A DNA stretch of 64,000 bases from the NCBI GenBank assembly GCA_016432345.1, contig CP066685.1:695740-759739 (forward strand), written 5' to 3'. Shown piece by piece: positions 1 to 24,141 of the stretch. The notes beneath the pieces are model-generated. The model saw only the letters and a program-made list of their open reading frames with translations. It was not told the origin of the DNA and ran no database searches. The number at the start of each line of letters is the position of its first letter. Position 1 is the stretch's first letter. Origin of the DNA: Candidatus Levyibacteriota bacterium. GTDB taxonomy: Bacteria > Patescibacteriota > Microgenomatia > Levybacterales > UBA12049. The translations under genes were made by a program, and so were the position numbers.

Positions 1-195
1 TCGTGAAGAAAAAAACAATACATCAACAACAATCACATTGATAAAAAGGACAAAAATAAAACCCAAAAGGACAAATACAGTAGCTTTATTTTCAAAAAGA
101 TACCCTGCGCTACTCGTAAATGCTTGGATTTTACTTGGAGAATCTTCCTGGGAATCGTCCATACAAATAGTATAGCAAAAGAGGAAAAAGAAATC

Positions 196-2372: not shown

Positions 2373-3289
2373 AAAAAACCTCATTCTTTCCATTGTTTTT
2401 GTTGGCAATCGCGTTTCTTTACTTTTTCTATCCGCCTTTTTCTGCAATTGCCAATAAAGTTTTATATCAATCACCGTGCGACACGCCAAAAACCTACAAA
2501 ATTGGCATTGTTGATTTACGCTTTCAACTGCCCAAAAGTGATTTTCAAGAAAGAACAAAAGAAGCGGCGCGAATTTGGAATACAGCTCTTCAGAAAAATC
2601 TCCTTTTGTACGATCCGCAAGCAATACTTACAGTTAATCTTGTTTACGACCAAAGACAATCATTAAATACACAAATAAACTCGCTTGAAGGCACGCTAAA
2701 TAGTCAAAAATCATCTCTAGATTCCGAAATTGCAGAATACGAAAGCCTTGCGAAATCATTTGAAAGCAAACTTTCGGCGTTTAACACCCAGGTTAGCTAT
2801 TGGAATAGTCAAGGCGGCGCGCCTAAAGATGAATACGACAAGCTAAAAAAAGAGGAAGAAGAATTAAAAACGCAGGCGCAGCGAATAAATGCGTTGGCCA
2901 AAAAACTAAACTTTTCCACCCAAAATTACAATACCCAAGTTAATACTCTTAACACAACAATTCGTACATTCAAAAACGAACTTCAGAAAAAACCAGAAGA
3001 AGGAGTCTACAAACCAAAGGAGCAAAAAATTGATATTTTTTTTGACATCAACCATGATGAGCTTGTCCATACACTGGCGCATGAATTTGGCCACGCCTTA
3101 GACATTGACCATATTCCAAACGAAAACGCTATTATGTATCCCTTTACCACACAAACAATTAAACCCGCAGCAGAAGAAATTGCGGCTTTACAAAAAATCT
3201 GCGAGAAGCGTTTTATCGGAGAAATAGCATTTAAAAATGCGGTTATACTTACTCAAGAACTTATTACAAAAGTGAAAGAAACAAAATAA
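2369..3289 (+). CDS. Secreted metzincin-type zinc metallopeptidase with a coiled-coil region
   Basis: N-terminal signal peptide; HEFGHALDIDH (HExxHxxxxxH) followed by an AIMYP Met-turn; central region rich in heptad-like repeats. Confidence 0.65.
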   Translation: MKKTSFFPLFLLAIAFLYFFYPPFSAIANKVLYQSPCDTPKTYKIGIVDLRFQLPKSDFQERTKEAARIWNTALQKNLLLYDPQAILTVNLVYDQRQSLNTQINSLEGTLNSQKSSLDSEIAEYESLAKSFESKLSAFNTQVSYWNSQGGAPKDEYDKLKKEEEELKTQAQRINALAKKLNFSTQNYNTQVNTLNTTIRTFKNELQKKPEEGVYKPKEQKIDIFFDINHDELVHTLAHEFGHALDIDHIPNENAIMYPFTTQTIKPAAEEIAALQKICEKRFIGEIAFKNAVILTQELITKVKETK

Positions 3290-3314
3290 CCTCGTTTTCT
3301 GCTATAATATATAC

Positions 3315-3337
3315 ACCGCATAAGGCGGTTTTTTTAA
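3315..3337 (+). terminator. Putative intrinsic terminator after the metallopeptidase gene
   Basis: ACCGC-ataag-GCGGT hairpin followed by a T7 run, immediately 3' of the stop at 3289. Confidence 0.45.
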
Positions 3338-3339
3338 TT

Positions 3340-5160
3340 ATGGATATTCGTAATGTGGCCATTATCGCCCATGTTGACCATGGAAAAACAACATTGGTGG
3401 ACGCGCTGTTAAAGCAATCAAAAACAAAACTGCATAAAGACAGCGCTAGCTCGCTTATTATGGATAGCAACGAGCTTGAGCAAGAAAGGGGTATTACTAT
3501 TTTTTCCAAAAACGCCTCGGTGCTGTGGCATTCGCCAGCTGGCGAAACCAAAATAAATATTATTGACACCCCAGGACACGCAGATTTTGGCGGGGAAGTA
3601 GAAAGAGTTTTAAAAATGGCCGATGGATGCTTGCTGCTAATTGATGCCAAAGAAGGACCAATGCCCCAGACCCGTTTTGTTTTAAAAAAAGCGCTGGAGA
3701 TGAAATTAAAAATTATTGTGGTTGTTAATAAAATTGATAAAAAAGACGCCCGTATCCATTATGTGCTTAGTAAAACTCTTGATTTGTTTTTCGAATTAGG
3801 AGCCGATGAAGAAACCGCCGATTTTCCCATTATTTATGCATCGGCAAAAATGGGAAAAGCAGGACTCACAGAAGATTTAACAGCCATGACCGATATATCA
3901 CCGATATTTAACATGATTCTAGAAAAAATTCCATCCCCTGCTGGAGACAAAAATAAGCCACTTCAGATACTTATTACCACCCTTTCTACTGATCTGCATA
4001 AAGGACGCATTGCGATTGGACGAATATACAATGGCACAATTAAAAACGGCCAAGACATAGTCCAAATAAAAAGGGACCAAACAAAAAATACTTATAGAGT
4101 AACTTCTCTTATGACCTTTGTTGGGCTTGATAAAACAGAAGTAGAAAGTACAGAAAGCGGCGATCTTGTGGCTGTTTCTGGTATTGCCAATCCTGAAATT
4201 GGCGAAACAATTACTGATCCTACAGAATCAATCGCTCTGCCTGTACTTAATATCGAAGAACCAACGATTAGAGTTACTTTTATGGTAAACAGCTCTCCTT
4301 TTGCAGGACGGGAAGGGGAATTTAAAACCTCTCGCCAAGTTAGGGATAGATTATATAAAGAACTAGAAACCGACATGGCTCTTAGGGTACAAGACGATGC
4401 TTTAGGAGGTTGGGTTGTGTCGGGACGGGGAGAACTGCATATTGCAATTTTAATTGAGCGGATGCGGCGGGAAGGATACGAATTTCAAGTTGGCAGACCA
4501 CAAGTTATTGATAAAGTTATAAACGGCGAAAAACTTACTCCGTACGAACGCATATTTATAGAAATACCAGATGAATTTAGCGGTATTGTTATGCAAAAAT
4601 TAGGCGCAAGACGCGGCGAATTACAAGATATGAAGTCAGAAAACGGCACAACATATATGGAATTTATTATTTCCACCCGCGGGCTTTTTGGCTATCGAAG
4701 CGAATTTGTTACAGATACTCGGGGTTTAGGTATTATTAACACTTCATTTTACAAATACGATAAAGACAATGGTTATTCTCACGAAAGGGAAAGAGGTTCG
4801 CTTGTTGTTCACGAAAATGGCATAACCAATTTATATGGCCTTACCAATGCCCAAGATAGAGGAATACTTTTTGTTGGACCCGGCATAGATGTTTACAAAG
4901 GACAAGTTGTTGGAGAAAATGCCAGATCAGAAGATATGACAATTAATGTCTGCAAAGAAAAACAACTCTCCAACATGCGCTCCAAAGGCGAAGGCGGCAT
5001 GGAACATTTTAATACACCAAAACAAATGGGGCTTGAAGACGCGCTGGAATTTATTGCCGATGACGAACTTGTTGAAGTAACACCTAAAAATATTCGAATT
5101 AGGAAAGCCATACTTGACGAAGTTGAAGCCCGCCGCAAACGCTCCCAAGGATTGATTTAA
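3340..5160 (+). CDS. typA: Translational GTPase TypA/BipA
   Basis: 606 aa; N-terminus VAIIAHVDHGKTTLVD, DTPGHADF, NKIDK G-motifs; full TypA-length C-terminal domains. Confidence 0.9.
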   Translation: MDIRNVAIIAHVDHGKTTLVDALLKQSKTKLHKDSASSLIMDSNELEQERGITIFSKNASVLWHSPAGETKINIIDTPGHADFGGEVERVLKMADGCLLLIDAKEGPMPQTRFVLKKALEMKLKIIVVVNKIDKKDARIHYVLSKTLDLFFELGADEETADFPIIYASAKMGKAGLTEDLTAMTDISPIFNMILEKIPSPAGDKNKPLQILITTLSTDLHKGRIAIGRIYNGTIKNGQDIVQIKRDQTKNTYRVTSLMTFVGLDKTEVESTESGDLVAVSGIANPEIGETITDPTESIALPVLNIEEPTIRVTFMVNSSPFAGREGEFKTSRQVRDRLYKELETDMALRVQDDALGGWVVSGRGELHIAILIERMRREGYEFQVGRPQVIDKVINGEKLTPYERIFIEIPDEFSGIVMQKLGARRGELQDMKSENGTTYMEFIISTRGLFGYRSEFVTDTRGLGIINTSFYKYDKDNGYSHERERGSLVVHENGITNLYGLTNAQDRGILFVGPGIDVYKGQVVGENARSEDMTINVCKEKQLSNMRSKGEGGMEHFNTPKQMGLEDALEFIADDELVEVTPKNIRIRKAILDEVEARRKRSQGLI

Positions 5161-5268
5161 CAACCTTTTTAACGACTGTCGTTATAGATGTTGATACGAC
5201 AACCTAAAATCAATCTCCCTCTGTCTGTTCTTGAACAAAAACTCCAAATCTTGTATCATAATAAACAT

Positions 5269-5340
5269 TGCTGAGTCGTCTAATGGTAGGACAACGGACT
5301 TTGGATCCGTTTATTCTGGTTCGAATCCAGGCTCAGCAGC
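5269..5340 (+). tRNA. tRNA-Gln (anticodon TTG)
   Basis: TGCTGAG acceptor stem pairing with CTCAGCA; anticodon stem ACGGA/TCCGT with loop CTTTGGA; T-loop GGTTCGAATCC. Confidence 0.85.
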
Positions 5341-5394
5341 CTAGGCTTTAGTATCGGAAATTTCATTAATCTTAACCACCTTATTAAACTTATC

Positions 5395-6438
5395 ATGAAT
5401 AATTTTTTTCGAAATAAAATACTTATTGTTGTACTTCTCCTAATTAACGCTACTCTTATTGTATTTCTTCCAAAGAATAAATCAATAAGTACTCCTTTAA
5501 ACAAAAACACAATAAACCCGCAAACCAAACAAAACCTTAACCCTTTGTCAATTGAAGCCATGCGCGAGAAAACATATCCAGGCAGCGATATTATAATCGA
5601 ACAAACTCTACCTTCTACCAGTAATTACAATCAGTATCTTACTTCCTACCAATCGGACGGTCTAAAAATCTACGCTCTGTTAACTGTTCCTATTGGCCAA
5701 AAACCCAAAAATGGTTGGCCGGTGATTGTTTTTAATCATGGCTATATTCCGCCCGAAGTTTACCGGACAACCGAAAGGTATGTTGCTTACATTGATGCTT
5801 TTGCCAGAAACGGCTATATAGTTTTTAAACCAGATTACAGAGGAAATGGTAATTCCCAAGGAAAACCCGAAGGCGCATATTACTCTGCGGCTTACGCAAC
5901 CGATGATTTAAATGCAATTTCCTCAATTAAAAAATATAAAGACGCAAACCCCCAAAGAATTGGCGTTTGGGGCCACTCAATGGGCGGCAATATTACCCTT
6001 CGGGATTTGGTTGTAAACACAAAAGATATAAAAGCGGCTGTAATTTGGGGTGGGGTTGTTGGCTCGTACGAAGACTTAATGTATAACTGGCAACGAAAAG
6101 TAACTTATCGTCCATCAGGAAGAGAACTAACACTTCGAAATTCATCCAGACAACAATTAATAGACAAATATGGGGACCCAAGAAAAAACCCGCAGTTTTG
6201 GAACTCGCTTGACCCTACCTACTTTGTAAAAGATATTACAGCGCCCATTCAATTGGACACAGGCGGCAGCGACGAAGAAGTACCGGTGGCTTTTTCTAAG
6301 TCTCTAAAAGACAAATTGCAAACGGCTGGAAAAACCGTTGAATATTTCGAATATCCAGGAGATGACCACAACATTTCTCAAAATTTTACCCCTGCCATGC
6401 AAAATTCAGTTAAATTTTTCGATAAATACCTAAAATAG
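5395..6438 (+). CDS. Membrane-anchored alpha/beta hydrolase (S9 peptidase / dienelactone hydrolase-like)
   Basis: N-terminal TM helix, linker, then a hydrolase fold with the GHSMGG nucleophile elbow. Confidence 0.7.
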   Translation: MNNFFRNKILIVVLLLINATLIVFLPKNKSISTPLNKNTINPQTKQNLNPLSIEAMREKTYPGSDIIIEQTLPSTSNYNQYLTSYQSDGLKIYALLTVPIGQKPKNGWPVIVFNHGYIPPEVYRTTERYVAYIDAFARNGYIVFKPDYRGNGNSQGKPEGAYYSAAYATDDLNAISSIKKYKDANPQRIGVWGHSMGGNITLRDLVVNTKDIKAAVIWGGVVGSYEDLMYNWQRKVTYRPSGRELTLRNSSRQQLIDKYGDPRKNPQFWNSLDPTYFVKDITAPIQLDTGGSDEEVPVAFSKSLKDKLQTAGKTVEYFEYPGDDHNISQNFTPAMQNSVKFFDKYLK

Positions 6439-6711
6439 CTGACTTAGACTTTTAGCCTCAATTTTGATATAATCCGCGGATGCTTCCAAAAAAATCCGTA
6501 TTTATCATCCCGGGATTTAGGCACAAACCTACCAGCAAAGCAAGTAAAGGCAAAACAAAAACATTTCGCTACATTCCTTCAGTAGAAAAGTATCTAATAC
6601 AAATCCAAAAAACCGACCATGATATCGGAAATACCCGATATTTACAAACACTCCGCCTCGCAACAAAAGAATTATTGTAATAATTTTTTTTGTCTGTTAT
6701 ATTAGAACCGA

Positions 6712-7533
6712 ATGCGCAGAAACGATATACTGAAAGCAAATAAAAAATGGTGGAATGATGTTACCCCAATTCACGCAAAATCCAAACTCTATAATCTCGC
6801 CTCTTTTAAAAAAGGAAAAACCAGTTTAGAAAAAACAGAAATTACAGAATTGGGCAATAACGTTCGTGGAAAAACCTTATTACATCCCATGTGCCACTTT
6901 GGTATGGACACATTATCGTGGGCCAGAAAAGGCGCAATAACAACAGGTGTTGATTTATCAGATAAAGCAATTGAATTCGCAAAAGAATTAAGTAAAGAAA
7001 CCCATATTCCATCAACCTTTATATGTTCGGATTTTAATAAATTGCCAAAAGCACTCAACAAAAAATTTGATATTATTTTTATGTCTTATGGCGTACTTTG
7101 CTGGATAACAGACATTAATAAATGGGCAAAAATAATAAGTCATTTTTTAAAAAAAGGTGGCACTTTTTATATTATCGAACTTCATCCATTTACCAACATA
7201 TTAAGTTATGATTTTAAGATATCCTACAACTATTTTGATAAAGGCCCAGACATTGATGATTCAGAAGGCACCTATGCAGATTGGAATGCGCCGATAAAAA
7301 GCCCGACATATGTCTGGAGCTATACCATAAGTAATGTTATAAACGCGCTAACCCAACAAGGATTAAAAATAGAATATGTCCATGAATTTCCTTTTACCAT
7401 GTACGATCAGTTTCCCGGATTTATGAAGATAAACGAAAAAAACCAATATGTCTTAAAAAATAAAAAAATTCAAATACCTCTCTTGTTTTCCATAAAAGCT
7501 ACCAAACAAAACTTTAATACTGCCAAGTATTGA
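6712..7533 (+). CDS. Class I SAM-dependent methyltransferase
   Basis: LLHPMCHFGMDT (motif I-like), GVDLSDKAIEFAKE (motif post-I), FDIIFMSYGVL (motif II). Confidence 0.6.
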   Translation: MRRNDILKANKKWWNDVTPIHAKSKLYNLASFKKGKTSLEKTEITELGNNVRGKTLLHPMCHFGMDTLSWARKGAITTGVDLSDKAIEFAKELSKETHIPSTFICSDFNKLPKALNKKFDIIFMSYGVLCWITDINKWAKIISHFLKKGGTFYIIELHPFTNILSYDFKISYNYFDKGPDIDDSEGTYADWNAPIKSPTYVWSYTISNVINALTQQGLKIEYVHEFPFTMYDQFPGFMKINEKNQYVLKNKKIQIPLLFSIKATKQNFNTAKY

Positions 7534-7703
7534 AGTTTTTTACATAAAACTATGTCTCTTATTTTTACTATTCTAAGCTTTGGCTTTACCTGCGACTGCG
7601 TCATGCCATCGATGCTGACCACGTAGCGGCAATTACTACATTTGTCAACCGAGAGCAAAGCATCCGCTCTGCAGAAGTAAGGATACGACAGCTTTTTTAT
7701 TTG

Positions 7704-7775
7704 AGCGGCGGACCGGATTCGAACCGGCGACATCTTCCTTGGCAAGGAAGCATTCTACCACTGAATTACCACCGC
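7704..7775 (-). tRNA. tRNA-Gly (anticodon GCC)
   Basis: Reverse complement GCGGTGG-TA-ATTCAGTGGTAGAAT...CTTCC-TTGCCAA-GGAAG...GGTTCGAATCC...CCGCCGC. Confidence 0.85.
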
Positions 7776-7780
7776 ACGGG

Positions 7781-7853
7781 TGCCGAGAGCAGGAATCGAA
7801 CCCGCATAACCGCTTCTTCAGAGCGGCGCCTTGACCACGTTGGCAATCTCGGC
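7781..7853 (-). tRNA. tRNA-Phe (anticodon GAA)
   Basis: Reverse complement GCCGAGA...CCGCT-CTGAAGA-AGCGG...GGTTCGATTCC...TCTCGGC-A. Confidence 0.8.
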
Positions 7854-8135
7854 TTTCTGCTTTTGTATTCTAGCATAAGTTCTAACCCTATGACAATTCG
7901 CACAAACAAGGTCACATTTTATTATCTCTTTCTTTATTTTTTCTATATTTGATGTATCGTTAACAGCCATCCAAGAAATACTTCTTATTTTTGTTTCTCC
8001 ATCACGATGATCAAAATCCATTACATATGGTGGAAATAAATTACTACAATCCATACATGGTCTATCTTTCTTTAACTCAGTGATAAATCTACGGCGTTCT
8101 TCTTTGTATCTTGTTTTTCTTAGTAATGCTAACAT
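7818..8135 (-). CDS. HNH homing-endonuclease-like protein
   Basis: 105 aa with CMDCS...FDHRDGE...N...CANCH (CxxC, His-Asp, Asn, CxxCH: HNH/His-Me finger). The last 11 codons plus the TGA stop are the first 36 nt of tRNA-Phe. Confidence 0.7.
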   Translation of the reverse strand: MLALLRKTRYKEERRRFITELKKDRPCMDCSNLFPPYVMDFDHRDGETKIRSISWMAVNDTSNIEKIKKEIIKCDLVCANCHRVRTYARIQKQKAEIANVVKAPL

Positions 8136-8143
8136 AAGTTGTC

Positions 8144-8688
8144 TTGTTTGGTTCTGATGATATTGGTATTCATGTCTGCATTGTAGATCTTGATGTTGGC
8201 ATGGCTCGCAAGCCAGTTATTATTGAAGTAAAACGGGGAGATTATTTAATTGGCCCGGATAATGGCGTGCTTTTACCTGCTGTAAGAATGCTTGGAGGAG
8301 ATAAGAAAGTCTTTGTAATAATAAATAAAGATTTTATGCTTTTACCAATTTCACCAATTTTTCATGGACGACATATTTTTTCACCAGTTGCTGCACATTT
8401 ATCAAATGGTGTACCAATCGATCAATTTGGTCCAGTTATCAGATTTAACACTTTAGAACCAGCGCCATATCAAGAAGCAACCATTAAAAATGGCGTCATT
8501 GAAGCAGAAGTTATTACGATTAATAAATTTGGCTCGCTCAAGTAGAGACTTTTGGCCAAGTCAAACCCCAAGAACCCCTCATTCTCAAAGACGATTATGG
8601 AAGAGTGGAAATTGCGATCAACCTCGGTGAATTTGCAAAAAAATATAAAGTAAACGTTGACGATAGAGTTGTTATTAAAAAGTTGTAG
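8144..8688 (+). pseudogene. 5'-truncated and frameshifted SAM hydroxide adenosyltransferase (DUF62 / fluorinase-chlorinase family) remnant
   Basis: Conserved DUF62 core (VDLDVGMARK..GPDNGVL...FHGRHIFSPVAAHL) but missing roughly 90 N-terminal residues. The C-terminal part (ETFGQVKPQEPLILKDDYGRVEIAINLGEFAKKY...) continues in a different frame after the stop at 8545. Confidence 0.65.
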
Positions 8689-8691
8689 ATG

Positions 8692-8763
8692 TGGGCACTG
8701 AGGGATTTGAACCCCCGGCATCTTCGATGTAAACGAAGCGCTCTACCACTGAGCTAAGTGCCC
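8692..8763 (-). tRNA. tRNA-Val (anticodon TAC)
   Basis: Reverse complement GGGCACT-TAGCTCAGTGGTAGAGC...CTTCG-TTTACAT-CGAAG...GGTTCAAATCC...AGTGCCC-A. Confidence 0.85.
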
Positions 8764-8781
8764 GACTATTTTTATGATTAG

Positions 8782-8865
8782 TGCCGAGGACAGGAGTCGA
8801 ACCTGCACGCTTTTTATAGCACTACCACCTCAAGGTAGCGGGTATACCAGTTTCCCCACCTCGGC
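8782..8865 (-). tRNA. tRNA-Leu (anticodon GAG), type II
   Basis: Reverse complement GCCGAGG...CTACC-TTGAGGT-GGTAG, long variable arm, GGTTCGACTCC, CCTCGGC-A. Confidence 0.85.
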
Positions 8866-9486
8866 TTGTTTACTAATTATATCTAAACAGGCTTGAATTT
8901 TAAAGTACTTTCTTTTCAGGCAAGGTACTTTTTTGTTGTAATACATCTTTCCAACAAGAATCAACGATTCCCTTTTTGCGAATTTTAAGCTAAATGTTGA
9001 TTTTCCTTCAAATTTAATAGCACCAGATAATCCGAAGAAACGCTTTATCTCCTTTTGTAACCATTCAATATGATTTTCGCTTGCAGAAAGAAAACCAGTA
9101 TACATCATAAAACTACTTTTCCATCTTTTATCCCAATAACTATATGTGTAGCCATCACCGTCTAAATGACCTCTTAAGAAATCCGCAAAATATCTATCCG
9201 GAATTTTTATACTACCTAAAGTTTTGGTCTTATGTGGAGTTAATCCAATGGATAATAAAAACCTGTAGAATTTTACATTTCCAAACTGAACCTGGTAGTA
9301 TTTTTTTTCGTGCGTGTAAGAACTATACTTTAATCCGATCTTATTTTTTAAGTTTAATATTTTTATAAAGGTTTGAATTTGATCCAAATCTTTCGACGTT
9401 AAATTAATATGCCTTCCATCTATCGAAAGACTTCCATCAGTCGTAATTAATCCTACAGCGTATGCTATACCTCTACTCCATCTCAC
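8830..9486 (-). CDS. Double-motif LAGLIDADG homing endonuclease, free-standing
   Basis: 218 aa with two LAGLIDADG motifs (AVGLITTDGSL and FLRGHLDGDGYTY). The last 11 codons plus the TGA stop coincide with the first 36 nt of tRNA-Leu(GAG). Confidence 0.75.
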   Translation of the reverse strand: MRWSRGIAYAVGLITTDGSLSIDGRHINLTSKDLDQIQTFIKILNLKNKIGLKYSSYTHEKKYYQVQFGNVKFYRFLLSIGLTPHKTKTLGSIKIPDRYFADFLRGHLDGDGYTYSYWDKRWKSSFMMYTGFLSASENHIEWLQKEIKRFFGLSGAIKFEGKSTFSLKFAKRESLILVGKMYYNKKVPCLKRKYFKIQACLDIISKQAEVGKLVYPLP

Positions 9487-9544
9487 TGATAAATTGTAGC
9501 ATACTCAAGAATTAGCGTATACCATTTACTACTTGCTCTTTTTT

Positions 9545-9629
9545 GTGCCGAAGAGAGGATTCGAACCTCCACGAGCTTTAGGCTCACAGCGTTCTGAACA
9601 CTGCATGTCTACCATTCCATCACTTCGGC
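9545..9629 (-). tRNA. tRNA-Leu (anticodon CAG), type II
   Basis: Reverse complement GCCGAAG...CAGTG-TTCAGAA-CGCTG, long variable arm, GGTTCGAATCC, CTTCGGC-A. Confidence 0.8.
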
Positions 9630-9699
9630 AAGTACACCTATTCTAACAAACACTGTAAAACTTGACAACAAACCAAAAAATGTGCAACTATAAAATACC

Positions 9700-10281
9700 A
9701 TGGGCAAATTTTTTAGACTTGCAATTTTTTTGTGCTTAACACCCGTTGTTTTTTTATTACTCTTTGTTTCTATTTCTTACCTCTCATATCTTAAAGTTTT
9801 TCAAGATCCATACCACGTGCATCTTTCCCAAAGTCAAACTGTAGCTTACGCCGCTTTGCCATCTGCACAGGATATTATCGAACAAGAAGTAATCATGCAG
9901 GATGCCAGAGTAGAAATGATAAAACAATTCTTTGCCAAATATAAATCGCCGCTAGAACCGTACGCAAAAGAGGTTGTTAACTATGCCGATGATTTTGGTC
10001 TTGATTTTCGGCTTATTCCCTCTATCGCCATGCAAGAATCTAACCTTTGTCTTAAAGCTCCAGTTGACTCCAACAACTGCTGGGGATTTGGCATATATGG
10101 CGGCAAGGTAAGAATGTTTAAAGACTATAAAGAAGGGATTTATGAAGTTACCAAAACCCTTGCTACAAACTACAAGAAAAATGGCTTAGAAACGCCAGAA
10201 CAAATTATGACTCGCTACACCCCAGGAAGCAATGGCAGTTGGGCTAGAGGAGTAACCCACTTTATGAATCAGCTTCAGTAA
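9700..10281 (+). CDS. Secreted lysozyme-like / lytic-transglycosylase-like peptidoglycan hydrolase, paralog 1
   Basis: Signal anchor; conserved block IPSIAMQESNLC...WGFGIYGG (putative catalytic Glu-Ser context as in SLT-type muramidases); clear paralogy with the next gene. Confidence 0.5.
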   Translation: MGKFFRLAIFLCLTPVVFLLLFVSISYLSYLKVFQDPYHVHLSQSQTVAYAALPSAQDIIEQEVIMQDARVEMIKQFFAKYKSPLEPYAKEVVNYADDFGLDFRLIPSIAMQESNLCLKAPVDSNNCWGFGIYGGKVRMFKDYKEGIYEVTKTLATNYKKNGLETPEQIMTRYTPGSNGSWARGVTHFMNQLQ

Positions 10282-10336
10282 CCCATAGTAAACCCCTTGA
10301 CAAACCTATAGTTACATGATAAAATTCCCCCTTAGA

Positions 10337-10379
10337 TCCTAAGGTATGGCCTTCAAAACCCCATACGTTAGGATTTTTT
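10337..10379 (+). terminator. Compound hairpin plus T-run between the two paralogs
   Basis: ATCCTAA-GGTATGG...CCATACG-TTAGGAT nested stem followed by TTTTTT. Confidence 0.4.
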
Positions 10380-10380
10380 A

Positions 10381-10935
10381 ATGGTAAAAAAAGGAGTGCT
10401 TCTTTTTACAGTGCTGGCAATTATCTATCAAAACTTTATTCCAAATGTCTTTGCGCAGAAATCTGCAGGATCGTCTGCTGTGTCTATTGTCACACTTCCA
10501 GAACAAGAAGAAGACGCAAGAGTAAAAATTCTTAAAAAATATCTTGAAAAATACAATTCGCCTTTGGTAAATTATGCTAGTGTCTTTGTTGCGGAAGCTG
10601 ACAAAAACAATATTGATTATAGATTGCTTGTGGCTATATCTGGTGTCGAATCCACCTTTGGACAACAAATTCCTAATAATTCCTACAATGCGTGGGGATG
10701 GGGAATTTATGGCGATAATATGATTAGATTTTCGTCTTGGAACGAAGCTATTGCAACTATATCTGGCGAACTTAGACAAAAATATATAAATCAGTGGGGA
10801 GCTAAAGATGTCTATCAGATTGGAAGGTTTTATGCTGCTTCACCAACATGGGCATCCCGTGTTAATTACTTTATGGAAAAAATAAACGCGTTTGCCCTAA
10901 AAAATCCGGGGCAGTCTCTTCCCATTTCACTCTAA
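10381..10935 (+). CDS. Secreted lysozyme-like / lytic-transglycosylase-like peptidoglycan hydrolase, paralog 2
   Basis: Signal peptide; the same architecture (KYxSPLxxYA...DxRLLxAISGVESTFG...WGWGIYGD...) aligns along its whole length with the preceding ORF. Confidence 0.5.
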   Translation: MVKKGVLLFTVLAIIYQNFIPNVFAQKSAGSSAVSIVTLPEQEEDARVKILKKYLEKYNSPLVNYASVFVAEADKNNIDYRLLVAISGVESTFGQQIPNNSYNAWGWGIYGDNMIRFSSWNEAIATISGELRQKYINQWGAKDVYQIGRFYAASPTWASRVNYFMEKINAFALKNPGQSLPISL

Positions 10936-10959
10936 GTAAGGTATAATTGCCATTTAGAA

Positions 10960-11042
10960 GGGTCGGTGGCGGAACTAGGTATACGCGTATGGTTTAGGAC
11001 CATATCCCGAAAGGGTTGGAGGTTCGATTCCTCTCCGACCCA
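10960..11042 (+). tRNA. tRNA-Leu (anticodon TAG), type II
   Basis: GGGTCGG acceptor; anticodon stem TATGG/CCATA with loop TTTAGGA; long variable arm CCCGAAAGGG; GGTTCGATTCC; CCGACCC-A. Confidence 0.75.
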
Positions 11043-11055
11043 CCCGTAAATAATT

Positions 11056-12529: not shown

Positions 12530-13150
12530 ATGAATGAGTTACCCACCGCTGGTAATCCCGAAACCTCCCGCTTTCCAGAATTTGAGTATGGAAGAGATTT
12601 ATATGTTCAACTTTTTAAGGATGATACTCCTTTTGTTAACTTAGGTTATCTTCCTTATCAAAGAATTATAGCAGAAAGGGCACTCAGTATTTTAGAAAAT
12701 GATGGACATATTAGGCTAACACCTATGCCTTGTGCTACGTTCACAGGAGAAAAAGGAGATCTTGGTGATGCTGTATATCTCTATTTGCTCAGGCATGACG
12801 GGTACAGTCTTCACGCTGATGTGGAAGTCCCAGAAGGCGGTATTGATCAATCTTGGATTTTAAGACATACTTTTTTTGGAAGTGAAGCTAGCAGCACAGT
12901 TGTAGAAATTAATATGCTTCCGGGAGACACTAATTGTGAAGATCTAACTAGTTTAGTTAGACATTTATATGAGGAAAAAGGAGTACAAATAGGTGGTCAT
13001 CCAGAAATTCATTTAGAACCGGACGCATTGTTATCCCGAGTAAAATCAGCTTTGTCTTCCTCAACACACCAGGTGTGTGGTAGCTTGACACATAAGGAAA
13101 AATGGTACAATCGTTATGATGATTACGAAGCTTTACTGTTATGTAGATGA
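12530..13150 (+). CDS. Hypothetical protein; region is GC-richer than its surroundings
   Basis: 206-aa ORF with no motif recognised; its end overlaps the DUF3800 gene start. Confidence 0.4.
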   Translation: MNELPTAGNPETSRFPEFEYGRDLYVQLFKDDTPFVNLGYLPYQRIIAERALSILENDGHIRLTPMPCATFTGEKGDLGDAVYLYLLRHDGYSLHADVEVPEGGIDQSWILRHTFFGSEASSTVVEINMLPGDTNCEDLTSLVRHLYEEKGVQIGGHPEIHLEPDALLSRVKSALSSSTHQVCGSLTHKEKWYNRYDDYEALLLCR

Positions 13151-13696
13151 AAGCGGTCAAAATACAAAAGGAAAAGTATTTGTCGTTTCTGTGGTTGTAA
13201 CAGGTCAAAAACGGGAAGAACTTATAAAGATTTGTGAACAATTAGAACAAGTTAGTGGTAAGCGGAAGGATAAATGGGGCGAAGCTGATCATGAAGAACG
13301 AATGCGTTATCTTCATCATATTTTTGCAGATGACCGTTTTAGGGGCTGTTTACGCTACGAAGTGTTTCGTCAAACAATCGATTACGATACGGCAACTATT
13401 AAAGGTATTGTTGCATCAATAAAATGGGAAAAACCGAGTAGCAAGTATACTACGCTTATATATTGATGGACTTAGAAAAACAAAACGGCATGAATATGGA
13501 GCAAAACTTCGTCATTTGGGACTATCTGTTAGAAAAGTACAAGGAATTGCGAAAGACGAAAGTAATACTTTAACTCGTCTTGCTGATGCTATTGCTGGCT
13601 TTGTACTTGACGCAGTGGATGGCACATCGGAAGAGATAAAAGCATTATTTCGAAAAGCAAAGCGGGATAGTATGCTTATTGAAGTTTCTCCATAAA
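13116..13696 (+). pseudogene. DUF3800-family protein, interrupted by a +1 frameshift near 13440-13466
   Basis: N-terminus KLYCYVDESG (DUF3800 YxDESG signature). Frame A stops at 13466; the downstream part (IDGLRKTKRHEYG...LTRLADAIAGFVLDA...) continues in frame +1 to 13696 and matches the conserved C-terminal half of the family. Confidence 0.55.
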
Positions 13697-13809
13697 AAAA
13701 CCACCCACTAAGGGGTGGAGGAGCCTAGTCTTTTGAGAGACACATGCCATAACGGACAGTTTTCAGCTCTGATTTGCATTATTTATATCACATTTCTGCT
13801 TTTTCGTCA

Positions 13810-13911
13810 ATGCCAAAAAATCAACAGTTGATTTTACTCGGAAAATTCTATACAATTCTAAAGGTGAAACAATTTTGCATTCTTACTGTCGTCCTTATTG
13901 ATCTCGCATAA
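13810..13911 (+). CDS. Putative ilv leader peptide (33 aa: MPKNQQLILLGKFYTILKVKQFCILTVVLIDLA), 14 of 33 residues Ile/Leu/Val
   Basis: Short ORF whose stop lies 2 nt before the first of the alternative stem-loop segments upstream of ilvB; the C-terminal third is ILTVVLIDL. Confidence 0.55.
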   Translation: MPKNQQLILLGKFYTILKVKQFCILTVVLIDLA

Positions 13912-13942
13912 ACGAGCGGGGCTGACTGTAGAAAAACATACT

Positions 13943-13966
13943 CCCGCTCATAAGCGGGATTTTTTT
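13943..13966 (+). terminator. Attenuator terminator: CCCGCT-cata-AGCGGG plus T7, abutting the ilvB ATG
   Basis: 6-bp GC-rich stem followed by TTTTTTT. The upstream segment GAGCGGGG (13914-13921) can pair with TCCCGCTC (13942-13949) as a mutually exclusive antiterminator. Confidence 0.55.
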
Positions 13967-15652
13967 ATGAAACAAATGTCGGGTGGGCATATGCTGATGG
14001 AAACTTTCTTAAAAGAAGGTGTGGATTTAATTTTTGGCTATCCAGGGGGCGCTATTATGCCTGTATATAATGCCCTGTATGATTACCGAGGAAAAATCCG
14101 CCATATCTTAGTCCGCCACGAGCAAGGCGCATCCCACGCCGCAGAAGGATATGCCCGCATAACTGGCAAACCAGGTGTTTGCTTGGCCACTTCTGGTCCC
14201 GGCGCCACCAATCTTATTACCGGCATTACCGATGCCTTAATGGACTCTGTGCCTTTAGTCTGTATTACAGGACAAGTTGCTTCCCATTTGGTTGGAACAG
14301 ATGCTTTTCAGGAAGCAGACATCGTTGGCATGACTACACCAATTACTAAATGGAATTACCAAATTACCAAAGCCTATGAAATCGTTAACGTCATTGCCAA
14401 AGCATTTAGTATTGCCAAATCAGGCAGACCTGGACCTGTTTTAATTGATATTACCAAAGACGCCCAAATTGATACAGGCAGTTTTTCCTACAAACCATAC
14501 CAGATTAAAAAAACATATCTCTCGCTTATTACACAAAAGAATAATATTAAAAAAGCAGCAGACCTTCTAAATAATGCCAAACGGCCTTATGTACTTATTG
14601 GTCATGGAGTGCAAATTTCATATGCCGAAAAAGAGCTTTTACAGTTTGTAGAAAAAGGCGGATTTCCGACTGCCGCAACCATCCACGGATTATCTTCTCT
14701 TCCCGCCAATCATCCTCTTTATGTTGGCATGCTTGGTATGCACGGCAATTACGGATCTAACATCCTAACAAACAAAGCAGATGTGATTATTGCCATCGGC
14801 ATGCGATTTGACGATAGGGTAACAGGAAGAATAAAAGACTATGCGCCTCAAGCCAAAATTGTTCATGTTGACATTGATCAAAGCGAGCACAATAAAATTA
14901 TAAAAACCGCTTTGGCAATAGTTGGCGACGCAAAAGAAGTTTTGCGAAAACTTATCCCCCTTATTAAGAAAAACTCTCACGCAGAGTGGATAAAAGAGTT
15001 TAGAAAATGTGATGCAATAGAATATGAAAAAGCCGTTCGCCCCGAAATGGCGCCAACAACCCCTCTTATCAAGATGGCAGAAGTTATCGCCATGCTGTCA
15101 AAAAAAACAAACGGCCAATCTATTATTGTTGCCGATGTGGGACAACATCAAATGATGGCAGCGCGTTATTATAAATTTCAAAAACCGAAAAGCTTTATCA
15201 CATCCGGCGGACTTGGCACTATGGGTTTTGCTTTACCGGCAAGTATTGGTGTCAAACTCGCCAGTCCAAAACGAAATGTAATTGCTGTTATTGGCGATGG
15301 CAGTTTTCAAATGACTATTCAAGAACTGGCAACAATTACCCAGGAAAAATTACCTGTTAAAATAATACTATTGAATAATAACTATTTAGGTATGGTGCGA
15401 CAATGGCAAGAGTTATTTTTTGACAGAAGGTATTCTTTTGTCGATTTAGATAATCCGGATTTTATCCAAGTGGCAAAAGGATTTCGCATTCCAGGCTTAA
15501 AAGTGGAAAAACGAAAAGATTTGGCAAAGGGAGTAGATAAAATGCTTTTAGCAAAAACACCATTTCTTTTGGAAGTGCATGTCGAAAAGGAAGGAAATGT
15601 TTTTCCCATGATGCCAACCGGCGCTTCGGTGGAGGAGATAAGACTGGAATAA
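13967..15652 (+). CDS. ilvB: Acetolactate synthase (acetohydroxy-acid synthase) large subunit
   Basis: ThDP enzyme: GVDLIFGYPGGAIMP N-terminal motif, GDGSFQM ThDP-binding motif; roughly 560 aa. The start could instead be the ATG at 13991 or 13997. Confidence 0.9.
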   Translation: MKQMSGGHMLMETFLKEGVDLIFGYPGGAIMPVYNALYDYRGKIRHILVRHEQGASHAAEGYARITGKPGVCLATSGPGATNLITGITDALMDSVPLVCITGQVASHLVGTDAFQEADIVGMTTPITKWNYQITKAYEIVNVIAKAFSIAKSGRPGPVLIDITKDAQIDTGSFSYKPYQIKKTYLSLITQKNNIKKAADLLNNAKRPYVLIGHGVQISYAEKELLQFVEKGGFPTAATIHGLSSLPANHPLYVGMLGMHGNYGSNILTNKADVIIAIGMRFDDRVTGRIKDYAPQAKIVHVDIDQSEHNKIIKTALAIVGDAKEVLRKLIPLIKKNSHAEWIKEFRKCDAIEYEKAVRPEMAPTTPLIKMAEVIAMLSKKTNGQSIIVADVGQHQMMAARYYKFQKPKSFITSGGLGTMGFALPASIGVKLASPKRNVIAVIGDGSFQMTIQELATITQEKLPVKIILLNNNYLGMVRQWQELFFDRRYSFVDLDNPDFIQVAKGFRIPGLKVEKRKDLAKGVDKMLLAKTPFLLEVHVEKEGNVFPMMPTGASVEEIRLE

Positions 15653-15653
15653 T

Positions 15654-15902
15654 ATGAACATTCAAACCTATACCATAACAGTTGAATCCGAAAATAAACC
15701 AGGAGTACTCTACCGTATCGCCGGTATTTTTGTGCGGCGAAAAATTAATGTTGAAAGTTTGTCTGTTGCCGAAACAAAAACTAAGGGCTTGTCAAAATTT
15801 TCAATTATTGCTAATATTACACCATACAACGCAAAAAGAGTTATTGAAAGCATTAAAAAAATTGTGGAAGTAACCGACGTTAATGCCGTAATCAAAAAAT
15901 GA
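15654..15902 (+). CDS. ilvN: Acetolactate synthase small (regulatory) subunit, minimal ACT-domain form
   Basis: 82 aa; ACT fold pattern ITVESENKPGVLYRIAGIFVRRKINVESL; positioned between ilvB and ilvC. Confidence 0.8.
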   Translation: MNIQTYTITVESENKPGVLYRIAGIFVRRKINVESLSVAETKTKGLSKFSIIANITPYNAKRVIESIKKIVEVTDVNAVIKK

Positions 15903-15946: not shown

Positions 15947-16993
15947 ATGAAAATAAATTTTGGCGGTGTCATCGAAGACGTGGTCACCCGAAAAGAATTT
16001 CCATTGACAAAAGCAAAGCAAGTGCTTAAAGACGAGGTAATTGCAGTAATTGGTTATGGCGTGCAAGGACCAGCCCAGGCATTAAACTTGCGGGATAACG
16101 GCTTTAGTGTGATTGTGGGACAACGAAAAGGTGGTCAGTCATTTGAAAAAGCCCAAAAAGACGGCTGGAAAGAGGGAAAAAACCTTTTCGATATAGAAGA
16201 AGCGGCAAAACGGGGAACCATTATTTGTTACCTTCTTTCCGATGCCGGGCAAATTCAATCCTGGCCGATTATTAAAAAACATCTAACACCTGGCAAAGCC
16301 TTATATTTTTCTCACGGCTTTGGTATAACTTACAAAAAACATACCAAGATTGTACCGCCAAAAAATGTTGATGTTATTTTGGTGGCCCCCAAAGGCTCGG
16401 GACGCACTGTCCGCAAACTCTTTACCGAAGGTAAAGGCATTAACAGCAGTTTTGCCATTTTCCAGGACGCCACAAAAAAAGCAAAAGAACGAATACTTGC
16501 AATAGGCATAGCCATAGGATCGGGTTATTTATTTGAAACAACGTTTGAAAAAGAGGTTTTTAGCGACCTAACAGGAGAAAGAGGCGTTTTAATGGGCGCC
16601 ATTGCCGGGGTTATGGAAGCGCAGTATAATTTGCTTCGCAAAAAGGGGCACACGCCATCGGAAGCATTTAACGAAACGGTCGAAGAAGCCACCCAAAGTC
16701 TTATTCCTTTAATTTCCGAAAACGGCATGGACTGGATGTTTGCCAATTGTTCAACCACGGCACAGCGCGGAGCGCTAGATTGGAAAGGAAAATTTAGAAA
16801 AGCTGTCGAACCGATATTTAATGATTTATACAAAAAAGTAAAATCAGGTTACGAAGCGCAGGTTACCATTAAAGCAAATAGCAAGAAAAATTATAAAGTT
16901 GGTTTGCAAAAAGAATTAGACACCATCAAAAATTCCGAAATGTGGAAAACAGGAACCACCGTCCGCTCCCTTCGCCCCGAACGACAAAAGTAA
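15947..16993 (+). CDS. ilvC: Ketol-acid reductoisomerase
   Basis: Rossmann motif GYGVQGPAQALNLRDNG; class I KARI length (348 aa). Confidence 0.9.
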   Translation: MKINFGGVIEDVVTRKEFPLTKAKQVLKDEVIAVIGYGVQGPAQALNLRDNGFSVIVGQRKGGQSFEKAQKDGWKEGKNLFDIEEAAKRGTIICYLLSDAGQIQSWPIIKKHLTPGKALYFSHGFGITYKKHTKIVPPKNVDVILVAPKGSGRTVRKLFTEGKGINSSFAIFQDATKKAKERILAIGIAIGSGYLFETTFEKEVFSDLTGERGVLMGAIAGVMEAQYNLLRKKGHTPSEAFNETVEEATQSLIPLISENGMDWMFANCSTTAQRGALDWKGKFRKAVEPIFNDLYKKVKSGYEAQVTIKANSKKNYKVGLQKELDTIKNSEMWKTGTTVRSLRPERQK

Positions 16994-16997: not shown

Positions 16998-17026
16998 TTG
17001 ACAAATAAGACACAACCTCTTATACT
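16998..17026 (+). promoter_or_regulatory. Sigma70-like promoter TTGACA-17 nt-TATACT; predicted start site falls at the leader ATG (leaderless leader mRNA)
   Basis: -35 TTGACA at 16998-17003, 17-nt spacer, -10 TATACT at 17021-17026, 7 nt before the ATG at 17034. Confidence 0.5.
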
Positions 17027-17033
17027 ACGATTA

Positions 17034-17090
17034 ATGAAGACAAATCAAAACATTCTCCTTACTATTGATCTCCTCCTTACGGAGATCTAA
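17034..17090 (+). CDS. Putative leu leader peptide (18 aa: MKTNQNILLTIDLLLTEI), 6 Leu and 3 Ile
   Basis: Short ORF ending 35 nt before the terminator hairpin; the Leu codons lie inside a self-complementary segment GATCTCC..GGAGATC. Confidence 0.6.
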   Translation: MKTNQNILLTIDLLLTEI

Positions 17091-17124
17091 TGGTTTGGGA
17101 GAAATAATTTTTAGATAATAACAA

Positions 17125-17150
17125 TCTCCCAAGCAAGGGAGATTTTTTTT
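17125..17150 (+). terminator. Attenuator terminator: TCTCCC-aagcaa-GGGAGA plus T8, abutting the leuA ATG
   Basis: Hairpin followed by TTTTTTTT. The upstream GGGAGA (17096-17101) and GGAGATC (17081-17087) can pair with ATCTCCC as alternatives; the 3' arm GGGAGA also serves as the Shine-Dalgarno for leuA. Confidence 0.6.
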
Positions 17151-18293
17151 ATGAAAAAACAGATTTTTATTTTTGACACAACTTTAAGGGATGGCGAGCA
17201 AGTACCCGGCTGTCAGTTAAATACTATTGAAAAAATTCAGGTGGCAAAAGCCTTAGACGAGCTTGGAATTGACATTATCGAAGCGGGCTTTCCAATCTCC
17301 AGCCCAGGAGATTTAAAATCTATTATTGAACTTTCCAAAGTCGTAACTCGGCCTACCATTTGCTCCTTATCCCGCGCTATTAAAGAAGATATTGATGCGG
17401 CCGCAGAAAGTCTAAAATTTGCCAAGCATAAACGAATACACACATTTATAAGCTCTTCCGATGTACAAATTAAATATCAGTTTAAATCCACCCGCGAAAA
17501 AATTATGCAGCAAGGCATTGAGGCTGTAAAATATGCCAAAAAGTTTACCCAGGATGTGGAATTTTCGGCCATGGACGCAGGCCGATCTGACAACGCATTT
17601 TTAGCAAAATTTATCGAAAATACAATCAAAGCCGGAGCCACTACTGTTAACATTCCCGACACTACAGGTTATTGTTTACCCGATGAGTTTGGTGAAAAAA
17701 TTAAATACTTATTCGAAAATGTCAAGGGAATTGATAAAGTAATTGTCAGCGTCCACTGCCATAACGACCTAGGACTAGCTACCGCTAATACCATTGCCGC
17801 TGTCCAAAATGGCGCGCGGCAAATAGAAGTAACTGTCAATGGTGTAGGCGAGAGGGCAGGCAACACCTCGCTTGAAGAAGCAGTGATGATCTTAAAAACA
17901 AGAGTTGATTTAAACGCTACAACCAGCATTAATACCAAATTAATTTGTCAAACATCTCAACTTGTTTCCAAACTTATGCACATGCCTGTTCAGCCAAACA
18001 AAGCCATCGTTGGCAAAAATGCCTTTGCCCACTCGTCAGGTATCCATCAAAACGGCGTCTTAAAAAACCGATTTACCTACGAAATTATTAACCCGGAAGA
18101 TGTTGGTGCTAAATCTTCGCTTGTTCTTACAGCCAGATCAGGACGATCAGCTTTAAGGTACCATTTAGAACGCTTGGGTTACAAAAAACTTTCCCAAACC
18201 CAAATTAATAGTACTTATCAAAAATTTTTAATGCTGGCAGACCAGAAAAAAGATTTAGGCGACAATGATTTAAAATATCTAATGAGTAATTAA
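17151..18293 (+). CDS. leuA: 2-isopropylmalate synthase, short form without the C-terminal regulatory domain (LeuA/CimA family)
   Basis: [10 protein letters not shown] motif and a HxH metal-site region in a DRE-TIM barrel; only 380 aa. Confidence 0.8.
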
Positions 18294-23497: not shown

Positions 23498-23571
23498 GGG
23501 CGCATAGCTCAGTTGGTTAGAGCGTTACATTGACATTGTAAAGGTCTCAGGTTCGAATCCTGATGCGCCCA
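23498..23571 (+). tRNA. tRNA-Val (anticodon GAC)
   Basis: GGGCGCA-TAGCTCAGTTGGTTAGAGC...TTACA-TTGACAT-TGTAA...GGTTCGAATCC...TGCGCCC-A. Confidence 0.85.
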
Positions 23572-23659
23572 CAAGTGATCTAATTGGATTATAAAAAGAC
23601 CCAGTTGACACCCACGAAATTACTTTTGCTAGACTACTTATCACTCTATTTATCACTCT

Positions 23660-24003: not shown

Positions 24004-24032
24004 TTGACAATAATAAATTTGTCTGCTAGTAT
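24004..24032 (+). promoter_or_regulatory. Sigma70-like promoter TTGACA-17 nt-TAGTAT, 7 nt upstream of the ilvA leader ATG
   Basis: -35 at 24004-24009, -10 at 24027-24032; leader ATG at 24040. Confidence 0.4.
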
Positions 24033-24039
24033 ACATACA

Positions 24040-24084
24040 ATGAATAAAAATCAAATTATCACAATTACCACCATTCCTTCCTAA
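24040..24084 (+). CDS. Putative ilvA leader peptide (14 aa: MNKNQIITITTIPS), 4 Ile and 4 Thr
   Basis: Short ORF whose stop codon is immediately followed by GGGAGGTG, the first arm of the alternative structures. Confidence 0.55.
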   Translation: MNKNQIITITTIPS

Positions 24085-24108
24085 GGGAGGTGTGTTTTTG
24101 TAAGAAAT

Positions 24109-24136
24109 ACCTCCCATAAAGGGAGGTTTTTTATTT
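24109..24136 (+). terminator. Attenuator terminator: ACCTCCC-ataaa-GGGAGGT plus U-run, 5 nt before the ilvA ATG
   Basis: 7-bp stem followed by TTTTTATTTT. The upstream GGGAGGTG (24085-24092) can pair with ACCTCCC as the antiterminator. Confidence 0.55.
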
Positions 24137-24141
24137 TAACC

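Follow-up and report, generated by a model that had tools for sequence, protein, structure and literature searches.

The ilvB-ilvN-ilvC operon in this stretch of 64,000 nt (64 kb; the window) from a Candidatus Levyibacteriota genome appears to be controlled by a ribosome-mediated leader-peptide transcription attenuator, a reading to which we give a probability of about 0.82. The element lies immediately upstream of ilvB, and it shows the features by which attenuators are recognised: codons for the end products of the operon, an intrinsic terminator, a mutually exclusive antiterminator, and a stop codon only 2 nt from the antiterminator 5′ arm (segment 2). The grounds for this reading are the sequence elements, their conservation, their codon content and their predicted energetics, from which we infer ribosome stalling and the response in vivo. 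As modelled here, the device is a complete classical attenuator compressed into the 103 nt between the leader start codon and the end of the U-tract. An initial annotation of the region had proposed that an open reading frame (ORF) rich in Ile, Leu and Val (I/L/V) attenuates ilvB; the mechanism is supported by conservation, folding under a ribosome mask, the coding type of nucleotide changes and sister leaders elsewhere in the window, although the leader is most likely 15 codons long rather than 33.

The elements of the region are listed below by their coordinates in the window, where A1 denotes an alignment of 8 close sequences.

13828–13833, + strand: −35 box TTGATT of the leader promoter, the sole sigma70-like site found in 13400–14200; TTG is invariant in A1.
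13851–13856, + strand: −10 box TACAAT, separated from the −35 box by 17 nt and ending 7 nt short of the leader start codon; all sequences of A1 share TA.AAT.
13810–13863, + strand: 5′ extension of the 33-codon ORF, unconserved and probably untranslated.
13864–13911, + strand: conserved leader ORF, GTG plus 14 codons plus TAA, (M)KQFCILTVVLIDLA; an ORF of 15–18 codons occupies the same position in 17 related loci.
13879–13899, + strand: regulatory codon run ATT CTT ACT GTC GTC CTT ATT (I L T V V L I), in which I/L/V make up 6 of 7 residues.
13884–13895, + strand: segment 1, the anti-antiterminator 5′ arm (UAC.GUCGUCCU), which pairs with 13918–13930 in the minimum free energy (MFE) structure predicted with no ribosome.
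13903–13916, + strand: small hairpin CUCG-CAUAAA-CGAG around the stop codon, predicted by folding as the inner part of the structure formed by segments 1 and 2 (the 1:2 structure).
13914–13921, + strand: segment 2, the antiterminator 5′ arm GAGCGGGG, 2 nt past the stop codon, which pairs with 13942–13949.
13942–13949, + strand: segment 3, UCCCGCUC, at once antiterminator 3′ arm and terminator 5′ arm; CCCGC is invariant in A1.
13953–13959, + strand: segment 4, the terminator 3′ arm AGCGGGA, found by folding and by terminator scan.
13960–13966, + strand: U7 tract of the intrinsic terminator, directly followed by the start codon of ilvB.

The terminator is a 7-bp hairpin made of UCCCGCU (13942–13948), the loop CAUA and AGCGGGA (13953–13959), and the ilvB ATG follows at 13967, directly after U7. 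The ORF, the 2-nt gap behind it, the pairing of GAGCGGGG with UCCCGCUC, the hairpin with its T7 and the abutting ilvB ATG had all been described by the initial annotation and were recovered at the same positions. A consensus scan of 13400–14200 returned 4 terminator-like sites, against 0.8 ± 0.9 in shuffled sequence, and under strict settings the ilvB terminator is one of only five on the whole + strand of the 64 kb. For the regulatory run, windows with at least 6 I/L/V in 7 residues make up 0.19% of stop-free 7-mers in the six-frame translation. Minus-strand ORFs at 13895–13990 and 13763–13855 overlap the conserved promoter and terminator and carry no supporting signal.

Most likely it is the 15-codon ORF from GTG 13864 to TAA 13911 (MKQFCILTVVLIDLA, given with its full start) that functions as the leader. 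The 33-codon ORF originally named as the leader (MPKNQQLILLGKFYTILKVKQFCILTVVLIDLA, from ATG 13810 to TAA 13909–13911) is indeed open and does contain 14 I/L/V residues, but the promoter (13828–13856) lies inside it. It was rejected as the leader: its first 18 codons are unconserved, overlap the conserved promoter and lie partly in sequence specific to the window. The same attenuator could in principle be read from a leader of the full 33 codons, or of 45 codons from TTG 13774, with a promoter further upstream; the frame is open from 13774, ATG 13810 is in frame with it, and two relatives (L161 and L163) are likewise open in frame 5′ of their start codons. This version is nonetheless very unlikely, given that the scan of 13400–14200 showed no promoter-like site upstream of 13810 and that the sequence around ATG 13810 has no counterpart in relatives, in which its position aligns with the end of the upstream DUF5660 gene. 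In four relatives (L162, L169, L166 and L005) there are in-frame stop codons 4–9 codons upstream and no alternative start codon; in L162 and L169 the stop stands 8 codons 5′ of the GTG with no start codon between. Moreover, the conserved upstream blocks are exactly the −35 and −10 hexamers, and in L162 a 1-nt indel between the −10 box and the start codon disrupts the frame.

The leader mRNA of the 15-codon ORF is probably leaderless, because the −10 hexamer ends 7 nt before the GTG; the predicted transcription start site (TSS) is GTG 13864 itself or 1 nt before it. The corresponding distance is 7–9 nt in most relatives and up to 13 nt. No Shine-Dalgarno (SD) motif was seen before the leader or before the ilvB ATG. 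A promoter of the pattern TTGnnn-16..18-TAnnnT ending 5–10 nt before the start codon precedes 4 of 4 leader ORFs in the window (ilvB and the three sister leaders described below), against 0.9% of all ATGs; among 61 gene starts, 6 have the same pattern. SD-like motifs are likewise present at 6 of these 61 starts, and at 6.7% of all ATGs in the window, and so are not clearly enriched. Several operon-first genes, for example those at 1436, 25433, 42816 and 56162 (− strand), also have a full promoter whose −10 box ends 5–10 nt before the ATG. Since SD-like motifs are about as rare at gene starts as at random ATGs, and several operon-first ATGs lie so close to promoters, the sequence suggests that leaderless mRNAs are widespread in this genome.

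The competing structures were evaluated with ViennaRNA energies and by ribosome-mask folding of 13864–13966. The initial annotation had named an unstable terminator hairpin as grounds for doubt; the predicted energy of the terminator is −11.0 / −11.8 kcal/mol (core −11.0), and the 8-bp antiterminator helix (13914–13921 with 13942–13949) came to −12.9 kcal/mol, or −13.4 to −14.6 with inner pairs. With no ribosome, the predicted fold is the 1:2 structure plus the terminator (−27.1 kcal/mol). In this third structure 13884–13895, including the GUC GUC CU of the Val-Val-Leu codons, pairs with 13918–13930, together with the CUCG/CGAG stop-codon hairpin; the Val-Val-Leu codons (13888–13895) themselves pair with 13918–13926, as an anti-antiterminator. 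With the ribosomal A-site on the stop codon and the mask extended to +12 or +15, only the terminator forms. With the A-site on Val10 (GTC 13891) the antiterminator is the MFE structure of the full-length RNA (−18.0 kcal/mol), and before segment 4 exists it is the only strong structure (−14.6 kcal/mol). These folds agree with the proposal already made for the region, in which a ribosome at the stop codon permits termination and one stalled at branched-chain codons permits antitermination, and they add the 1:2 structure to it.

On this basis the switch would work as follows. Transcription would start about 7 nt after TACAAT, and the 15-codon ORF would be translated from a leaderless mRNA. When Ile, Leu and Val are plentiful, the ribosome would reach TAA 13909 and cover segment 2 (13914–13921); UCCCGCU would then pair with AGCGGGA, and RNA polymerase would terminate in U7 before ilvB. 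When charged tRNA for Ile, Leu or Val is scarce, the ribosome would stall in ILTVVLI (13879–13899), melt the 1:2 hairpin and free segment 2, which could pair with segment 3 before segment 4 has been made, blocking the terminator and allowing ilvBNC to be transcribed. If the leader were not translated at all, segment 1 (13884–13895) would sequester segment 2 and the terminator would form.

Related ilvB loci were collected from GTDB genomes, JGI/ENA metagenomes and exact-protein matches. The microORF and terminator, whose absence from related genomes would have told against the original proposal, are kept in 17 of them, mostly Levyibacteriota-like, where the whole module sits directly upstream of ilvB or ilvE-ilvB: a sigma70-like promoter, an ORF of 15–18 codons, a G-rich arm 0–9 nt past the stop codon and complementary to the terminator 5′ arm, the terminator and a U-run. 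Their leader peptides are as follows.

L161: MKQFAILTVVLLDLA
L163: MKQLCILTVVLLDLA
L162: (GTG)KNFAILTVVLLDLA
L081: (GTG)KKFAILIIVLLDLA
L169: (GTG)KKFAILTVVLLDLAT
L166: (GTG)KKLSLIIVLLELAK
L164: MSKLLFIIVVSIIVLA
L082: MNRRFAQLIIVLITH
L083: MNNKAAQLIVVLITH
L171: MNNKFAQLIVILITH
L005, a Levyibacteriota metagenome-assembled genome (MAG): MRNSAALLVIVALAS
L172: MNRLLSLTNVVVLLIEG
L167: MQNYLLSLFGIVLVEAC
L170: MNKNSLLLVVDLLILVEK
L015: MRPFSAVIIILLTNP
L022: MNRNFSTIVVLLINPA
L087: MKNNSSLIYVLLINHA

What has been kept is the coding character of the ORF: frame, length, an RTG start (only ATG and GTG alternate in relatives) and amino-acid content persist while the nucleotides vary. Within the close clade, changes in the leader ORF are synonymous (AAA/AAG, CTT/CTG, ACT/ACA, CTT/TTA, GCA/GCG/GCT) or exchange I, L, V and T for one another; between clades the peptide is conserved only in its I/L/V content. 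Every one of the 15 ilv leaders analysed contains I, L and V, which together make up 40–62% of residues. Terminator stems differ by clade (CCCGCU/AGCGGG, ACCGCC/GGCGGU, AACCUC/GAGGUU and AUCUCCC/GGGAGAU), and the complementary arm next to the stop codon is kept at each locus, as is a canonical U7–U8 tract after the hairpin. The stop-codon hairpin has the counterpart CUCGC-AUAA-GCGAG in L161, L163 and L081. The three-state behaviour was reproduced in all 15 ilv leaders analysed (with the 1:2 structure present in 14 of 15 no-ribosome folds) and in 4 other leaders, and in most leaders the antiterminator energy was below that of most of 200 local shuffles (z from −1.0 to −4.6). RNAalifold on A1 predicted the 1:2 helix, with 2 compensatory pairs, and the terminator; covariation for the 1:2 helix is too sparse to convince statistically.

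A conserved hydrophobic peptide could also be a functional micro-peptide in its own right, or the structure could chiefly control translation of ilvB, whose ATG directly adjoins the terminator and lacks an SD motif, so that termination would not be the main output. Such a role is very improbable: 15 residues are too short for a membrane helix, between clades the peptide keeps its I/L/V content and nothing else, and the U7–U8 tract recurs at every locus. In addition, two of the sister leaders described next, those of aro and ilvA, are not generally hydrophobic but are enriched in their cognate residues.

The ilvB attenuator is not alone in the window. Three further operons begin with the same arrangement.

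16998–17150, + strand: leuA attenuator, with promoter TTGACA-17-TATACT (16998–17026), leader ORF 17034–17090 (MKTNQNILLTIDLLLTEI) 7 nt after the −10 box, and terminator 17123–17144 followed by U8.
24004–24141, + strand: ilvA attenuator, with promoter TTGACA-17-TAGTAT (24004–24032), leader ORF 24040–24084 (MNKNQIITITTIPS) and terminator 24109–24127.
27721–27871, + strand: aro attenuator, with promoter 27721–27749, leader ORF 27760–27813 (MKQFNNRKITFWFYFTS) and terminator 27841–27863; the ATG of the 3-deoxy-D-arabino-heptulosonate 7-phosphate (DAHP) synthase gene is at 27872.

In each, the leader carries a core cognate to its operon: ILLTIDLLL for leuA, IITITTI for ilvA and FWFYF for aro. The leuA terminator (AATCTCCC-AAGCAA-GGGAGATT + U8) abuts the leuA ATG at 17151, and its leader recurs in L172 (5776–5886) as MKVTCFQTDLLLALN. 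The leader of ilvA, the threonine dehydratase gene, has 4 Ile and 3 Thr; GGGAGGU comes directly after its stop codon, and ACCTCCC-ATAAA-GGGAGGT with a U-run behind it forms the terminator. The aro leader has five consecutive aromatic residues and is kept in the Levybacteria genome L173 (930–1040) as MNKAQNWFYFFFASLIGR, followed by ACCUCC-UCAAAA-GGGAGGU-U7. The leuA, ilvA and aro leaders all fold in the three states, and the four attenuators account for 4 of the 5 strict + strand terminators in the window. Composition tests for each core (six or more I/L/V in 7 residues, a run of four aromatics, four or more Ile in 7, five or more Leu in 9) each matched the cognate leader only, with no match on the − strand. 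Beside the six-frame frequency given above for I/L/V, the background is 0.017% for five aromatics in a row, 0.11% for at least 4 Ile in 7 and 0.42% for at least 5 Leu in 9.

The remaining one of the five strict + strand terminators, at 3298–3339, has a TATAAT-like box followed by the hairpin ACCGC-ATAAG-GCGGT and U7, and abuts ATG 3340 of a 606-aa ORF. It has no leader ORF and is probably an ordinary terminator of the upstream gene.

The ilvB hairpin might likewise be thought an ordinary, possibly bidirectional, terminator or insulator for upstream transcription, with the ORF and the G-run as chance features of T-rich DNA. The A-run at 13932–13936 and the downstream U-run can extend its stem and lend it a bidirectional look, its G/C arms are generic, and 5.5% of 15-mers in the six-frame set have at least 7 I/L/V, hydrophobic peptides arising easily from T-rich sequence. 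This account is nevertheless extremely improbable. The upstream unit has its own hairpin at 13701–13718, and since the terminator reaches right up to the ilvB ATG and leaves no space for a promoter, ilvB would be left promoterless. The promoter-ORF-terminator module accompanies ilvB or ilvE-ilvB regardless of the upstream gene, be it a DUF5660 gene, an IS200-like transposase, an exosortase or an opposite-strand hydrolase; as the upstream genes differ between loci, the module is part of the ilv operon rather than of the upstream unit. Finally, four cognate leaders in one window are very unlikely by chance.

The sensor itself calls for separate consideration, as alternative hairpins do not by themselves name it and covariation cannot tell one sensor from another. 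A trans-acting factor (an RNA-binding protein, uncharged tRNA or a metabolite) might set the real switch between terminator and antiterminator, leaving the small ORF incidental. A precedent comes from Streptomyces coelicolor, where one study describes an attenuator-like ilvB leader that behaved non-classically, mutation of its regulatory codons being without effect (PMC1262725). For the present locus a trans-acting switch is very unlikely, since the 103 nt from start codon to U-tract are far too short for a T-box, whose leader takes about 200 nt or more, the ORF is conserved in its coding features rather than its nucleotides, and codon content follows the operon end product in all four attenuators. 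No Rfam family speaks for it either: across the window only tRNAs reached the gathering score, with no leader or T-box family among the matches, and in 13650–14050 no T-box match appeared even at E ≤ 10. The best match near the leader was Trp_leader (15.8 bits against a gathering score of 41, E = 1.5). Sub-threshold matches of this kind (Trp_leader and assorted small RNAs) were set aside, as they look like chance hits driven by the terminator.

Several observations weigh against the attenuator as proposed, among them the Streptomyces precedent and the ease with which I/L/V-rich 15-mers arise. The global fold is unexceptional (z = −2.2 over 66 nt, −1.06 over 196 nt). Covariation is weak: in A1, 85% of antiterminator cells are paired, against 50–58% when the arms are slid, with 1 compensatory pair, and 92% of terminator cells, against 29–48%, with no compensatory pair; in neither case were shuffles exceeded. 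The terminator and antiterminator cores are near-invariant among the 8 close relatives, which makes the covariation count uninformative. In a wider 18-sequence MAFFT alignment, from stop codon to U-run, the register slips in the G/C runs and pair counts are unreliable, so it was not used. The arms are also generic in the sense that pairing the post-stop arm of a locus with the terminator arms of other loci gives −9.1 kcal/mol, against −11.0 with its own, so that this control discriminates poorly. Lastly, the TSS and leaderless initiation are predictions from promoter geometry, and GTG is a poor leaderless start codon in Escherichia coli, although it works in mycobacteria (PMC4633059).

The genes that the attenuator would regulate, with their NCBIfam matches, are the following.

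13967–15652, + strand: ilvB, encoding a 561-aa biosynthetic acetolactate synthase large subunit (TIGR00118, E = 8e-213).
15654–15902, + strand: ilvN, short, with an 82-aa TIGR00119-like product that consists of the ACT domain only.
15947–16993, + strand: ilvC (TIGR00465).

The gene order after ilvC is leuA, ilvD, ridA, leuC, leuD, leuB, tRNA-Val and ilvA. LeuA (17151–18293) has 380 aa, matches positions 4–382 of a 516-position model and is without the C-terminal regulatory (LeuA_dimer) domain, which the LeuA of L172 retains. Judging from these sequences, allosteric feedback may be reduced, leaving attenuation as the main control, and the attenuators may compensate for the allosteric domains lost from LeuA (380 aa) and IlvN (82 aa). 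Ten tRNA genes lie beside or inside the branched-chain cluster, at 196–11044 and 23498–23572, including four tRNA-Leu (taa, gag, cag, tag) and two tRNA-Val (tac, gac); tRNA-Val(gac), the reader of the leader GTC codons, sits between leuB and ilvA.

Genes for a short trigger factor and for a DUF5660 protein lie upstream of ilvB, as do DUF3800 fragments. A stretch of about 1.2 kb (12530–13720) separates the DUF5660 gene from the ilv promoter and holds a 206-aa ORF without a family match and frameshifted DUF3800 fragments at 13116–13466 and 13516–13695. It is missing from L161, L163 and L166, and L162 has an IS200-like transposase at that spot. The hairpin at 13701–13718 closes this stretch; with A7 before it, it is terminator-like on the − strand only.

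The aro operon encodes DAHP synthase, dehydroquinate (DHQ) synthase, DHQ dehydratase (DHQase), 5-enolpyruvylshikimate 3-phosphate (EPSP) synthase, shikimate kinase, shikimate dehydrogenase, chorismate synthase and a fused prephenate dehydrogenase/dehydratase. The fused gene (33655–35328) encodes 557 aa that combine prephenate dehydrogenase, prephenate dehydratase and an ACT domain. A small ORF at 35343–35600, chorismate mutase-like by eye, is followed by a class IV aminotransferase gene and pheS/pheT. The genes from 33655 onward form a compact Phe/Tyr branch joined to the shikimate operon.

The usual picture of bacteria of the candidate phyla radiation (CPR), or Patescibacteria, is of reduced symbionts, auxotrophic for the most part, about whose gene regulation little is known. 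The initial annotation had taken the source for a CPR-like genome, and its IlvB is in fact 100% identical to QQG40652.1 of a Candidatus Levyibacteriota MAG (Patescibacteria group, Microgenomates group). A full-text literature search for attenuation or leader peptides in CPR, Patescibacteria or Microgenomates returned no relevant paper. The ilvB attenuator is a well-known kind of regulator in a phylum for which we found no earlier description, and one of a set of four operons so equipped in the window. Its mechanism is textbook, and its value is taxonomic and physiological rather than conceptual. This genome, of about 0.76 Mb, keeps complete branched-chain and aromatic pathways, each behind an amino-acid-specific attenuator, which argues that the pathways are used and tuned to supply, that translation closely trails transcription in these cells, and that leaderless initiation is routine. 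There is an even chance, in our estimate, that a small regulon of leaderless attenuators (ilvBNC, leuA-ilvD-leuCDB, ilvA and aro/phe/tyr) is the main means by which Levyibacteriota, and perhaps other Microgenomates too, sense amino-acid supply. If so, a CPR bacterium would for the first time yield cis-regulatory evidence that it senses through coupled transcription and translation and that its amino-acid prototrophy is regulated. The arrangement also offers a signature by which small regulatory ORFs of CPR genomes can be annotated (a −10 box, then about 7 nt, an ATG or GTG micro-ORF, a G-arm and a terminator), and at 103 nt the attenuator is compact enough to be tested in heterologous hosts.

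Enterobacterial leaders, which belong to the classical devices of this kind, have 32 codons, are preceded by an SD motif and lie on a longer 5′ untranslated region. Unlike them, the element described here matches no Rfam leader family, such as Trp_leader (RF00513), at threshold. It resembles the E. coli ilvGMEDA (ilvL) and ilvBN (ivbL) attenuators, and the trp/his/leu/thr class as a whole, in being a four-segment device that would be sensed by the ribosome, with multivalent I/L/V control (mechanism summarised in PMC11857589), and in placing its stop codon where a terminating ribosome would mask segment 2.

Leader-peptide attenuation had been considered unexpected in such a genome. It is less so in light of Bacteroidota, the closest non-CPR IlvB relatives (60–65% identity), in which ILV-rich leader ORFs and terminators precede ilvD-ilvB; examples are Dyadobacter (L007, 895–998; MKLTLIVLVLLIVTPWA), Flavobacterium (L042, 1092–1211, and L067), L038 and many others, with MQISIIITSIIVVSVINTSAAGMV as a further leader peptide. 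The principle is the same, and its presence there implies that attenuation is widespread among relatives of this operon. The Bacteroidota leaders differ in standing before ilvD and not ilvB, in their length (17–28 aa), in being dominated by Ile/Val runs and in having other terminator stems. Directly upstream of ilvB, nothing comparable was seen in the best 80 IlvB-matching contigs, most of them Bacteroidota with ilvD at that position and the leader further upstream, before ilvD. These sequences raise the question of whether operon and attenuator were transferred together.

By analogy of design, the closest known counterpart appears to be the ilvBNC attenuator of Corynebacterium glutamicum, whose 15-aa IlvL (MTIIRLVVVTARRLP) is encoded 1 nt from the TSS without a ribosome-binding site, ahead of three hairpins (PMC11857589). 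There is no sequence similarity between the two, and they belong to different phyla (Actinomycetota and CPR/Levyibacteriota). The C. glutamicum element is experimentally supported, whereas the Levyibacteriota one is predicted; the leader region in C. glutamicum is 292 nt with a terminator far from ilvB, whereas here 103 nt suffice, the U-tract abuts the ilvB ATG and the leader starts with GTG. What they share is the plan: a 15-residue leader with Ile, Leu and Val codons and no ribosome-binding site, a start codon next to the TSS there and 7 nt from the end of the −10 box here, and competition between anti-antiterminator, antiterminator and terminator. The likeness extends beyond ilvB, as leader peptides are also known from leuA, aroF and trpE of C. 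glutamicum (PMC3890552), and in both organisms leaders precede leuA and aro genes (PMC11857589; PMC3890552).

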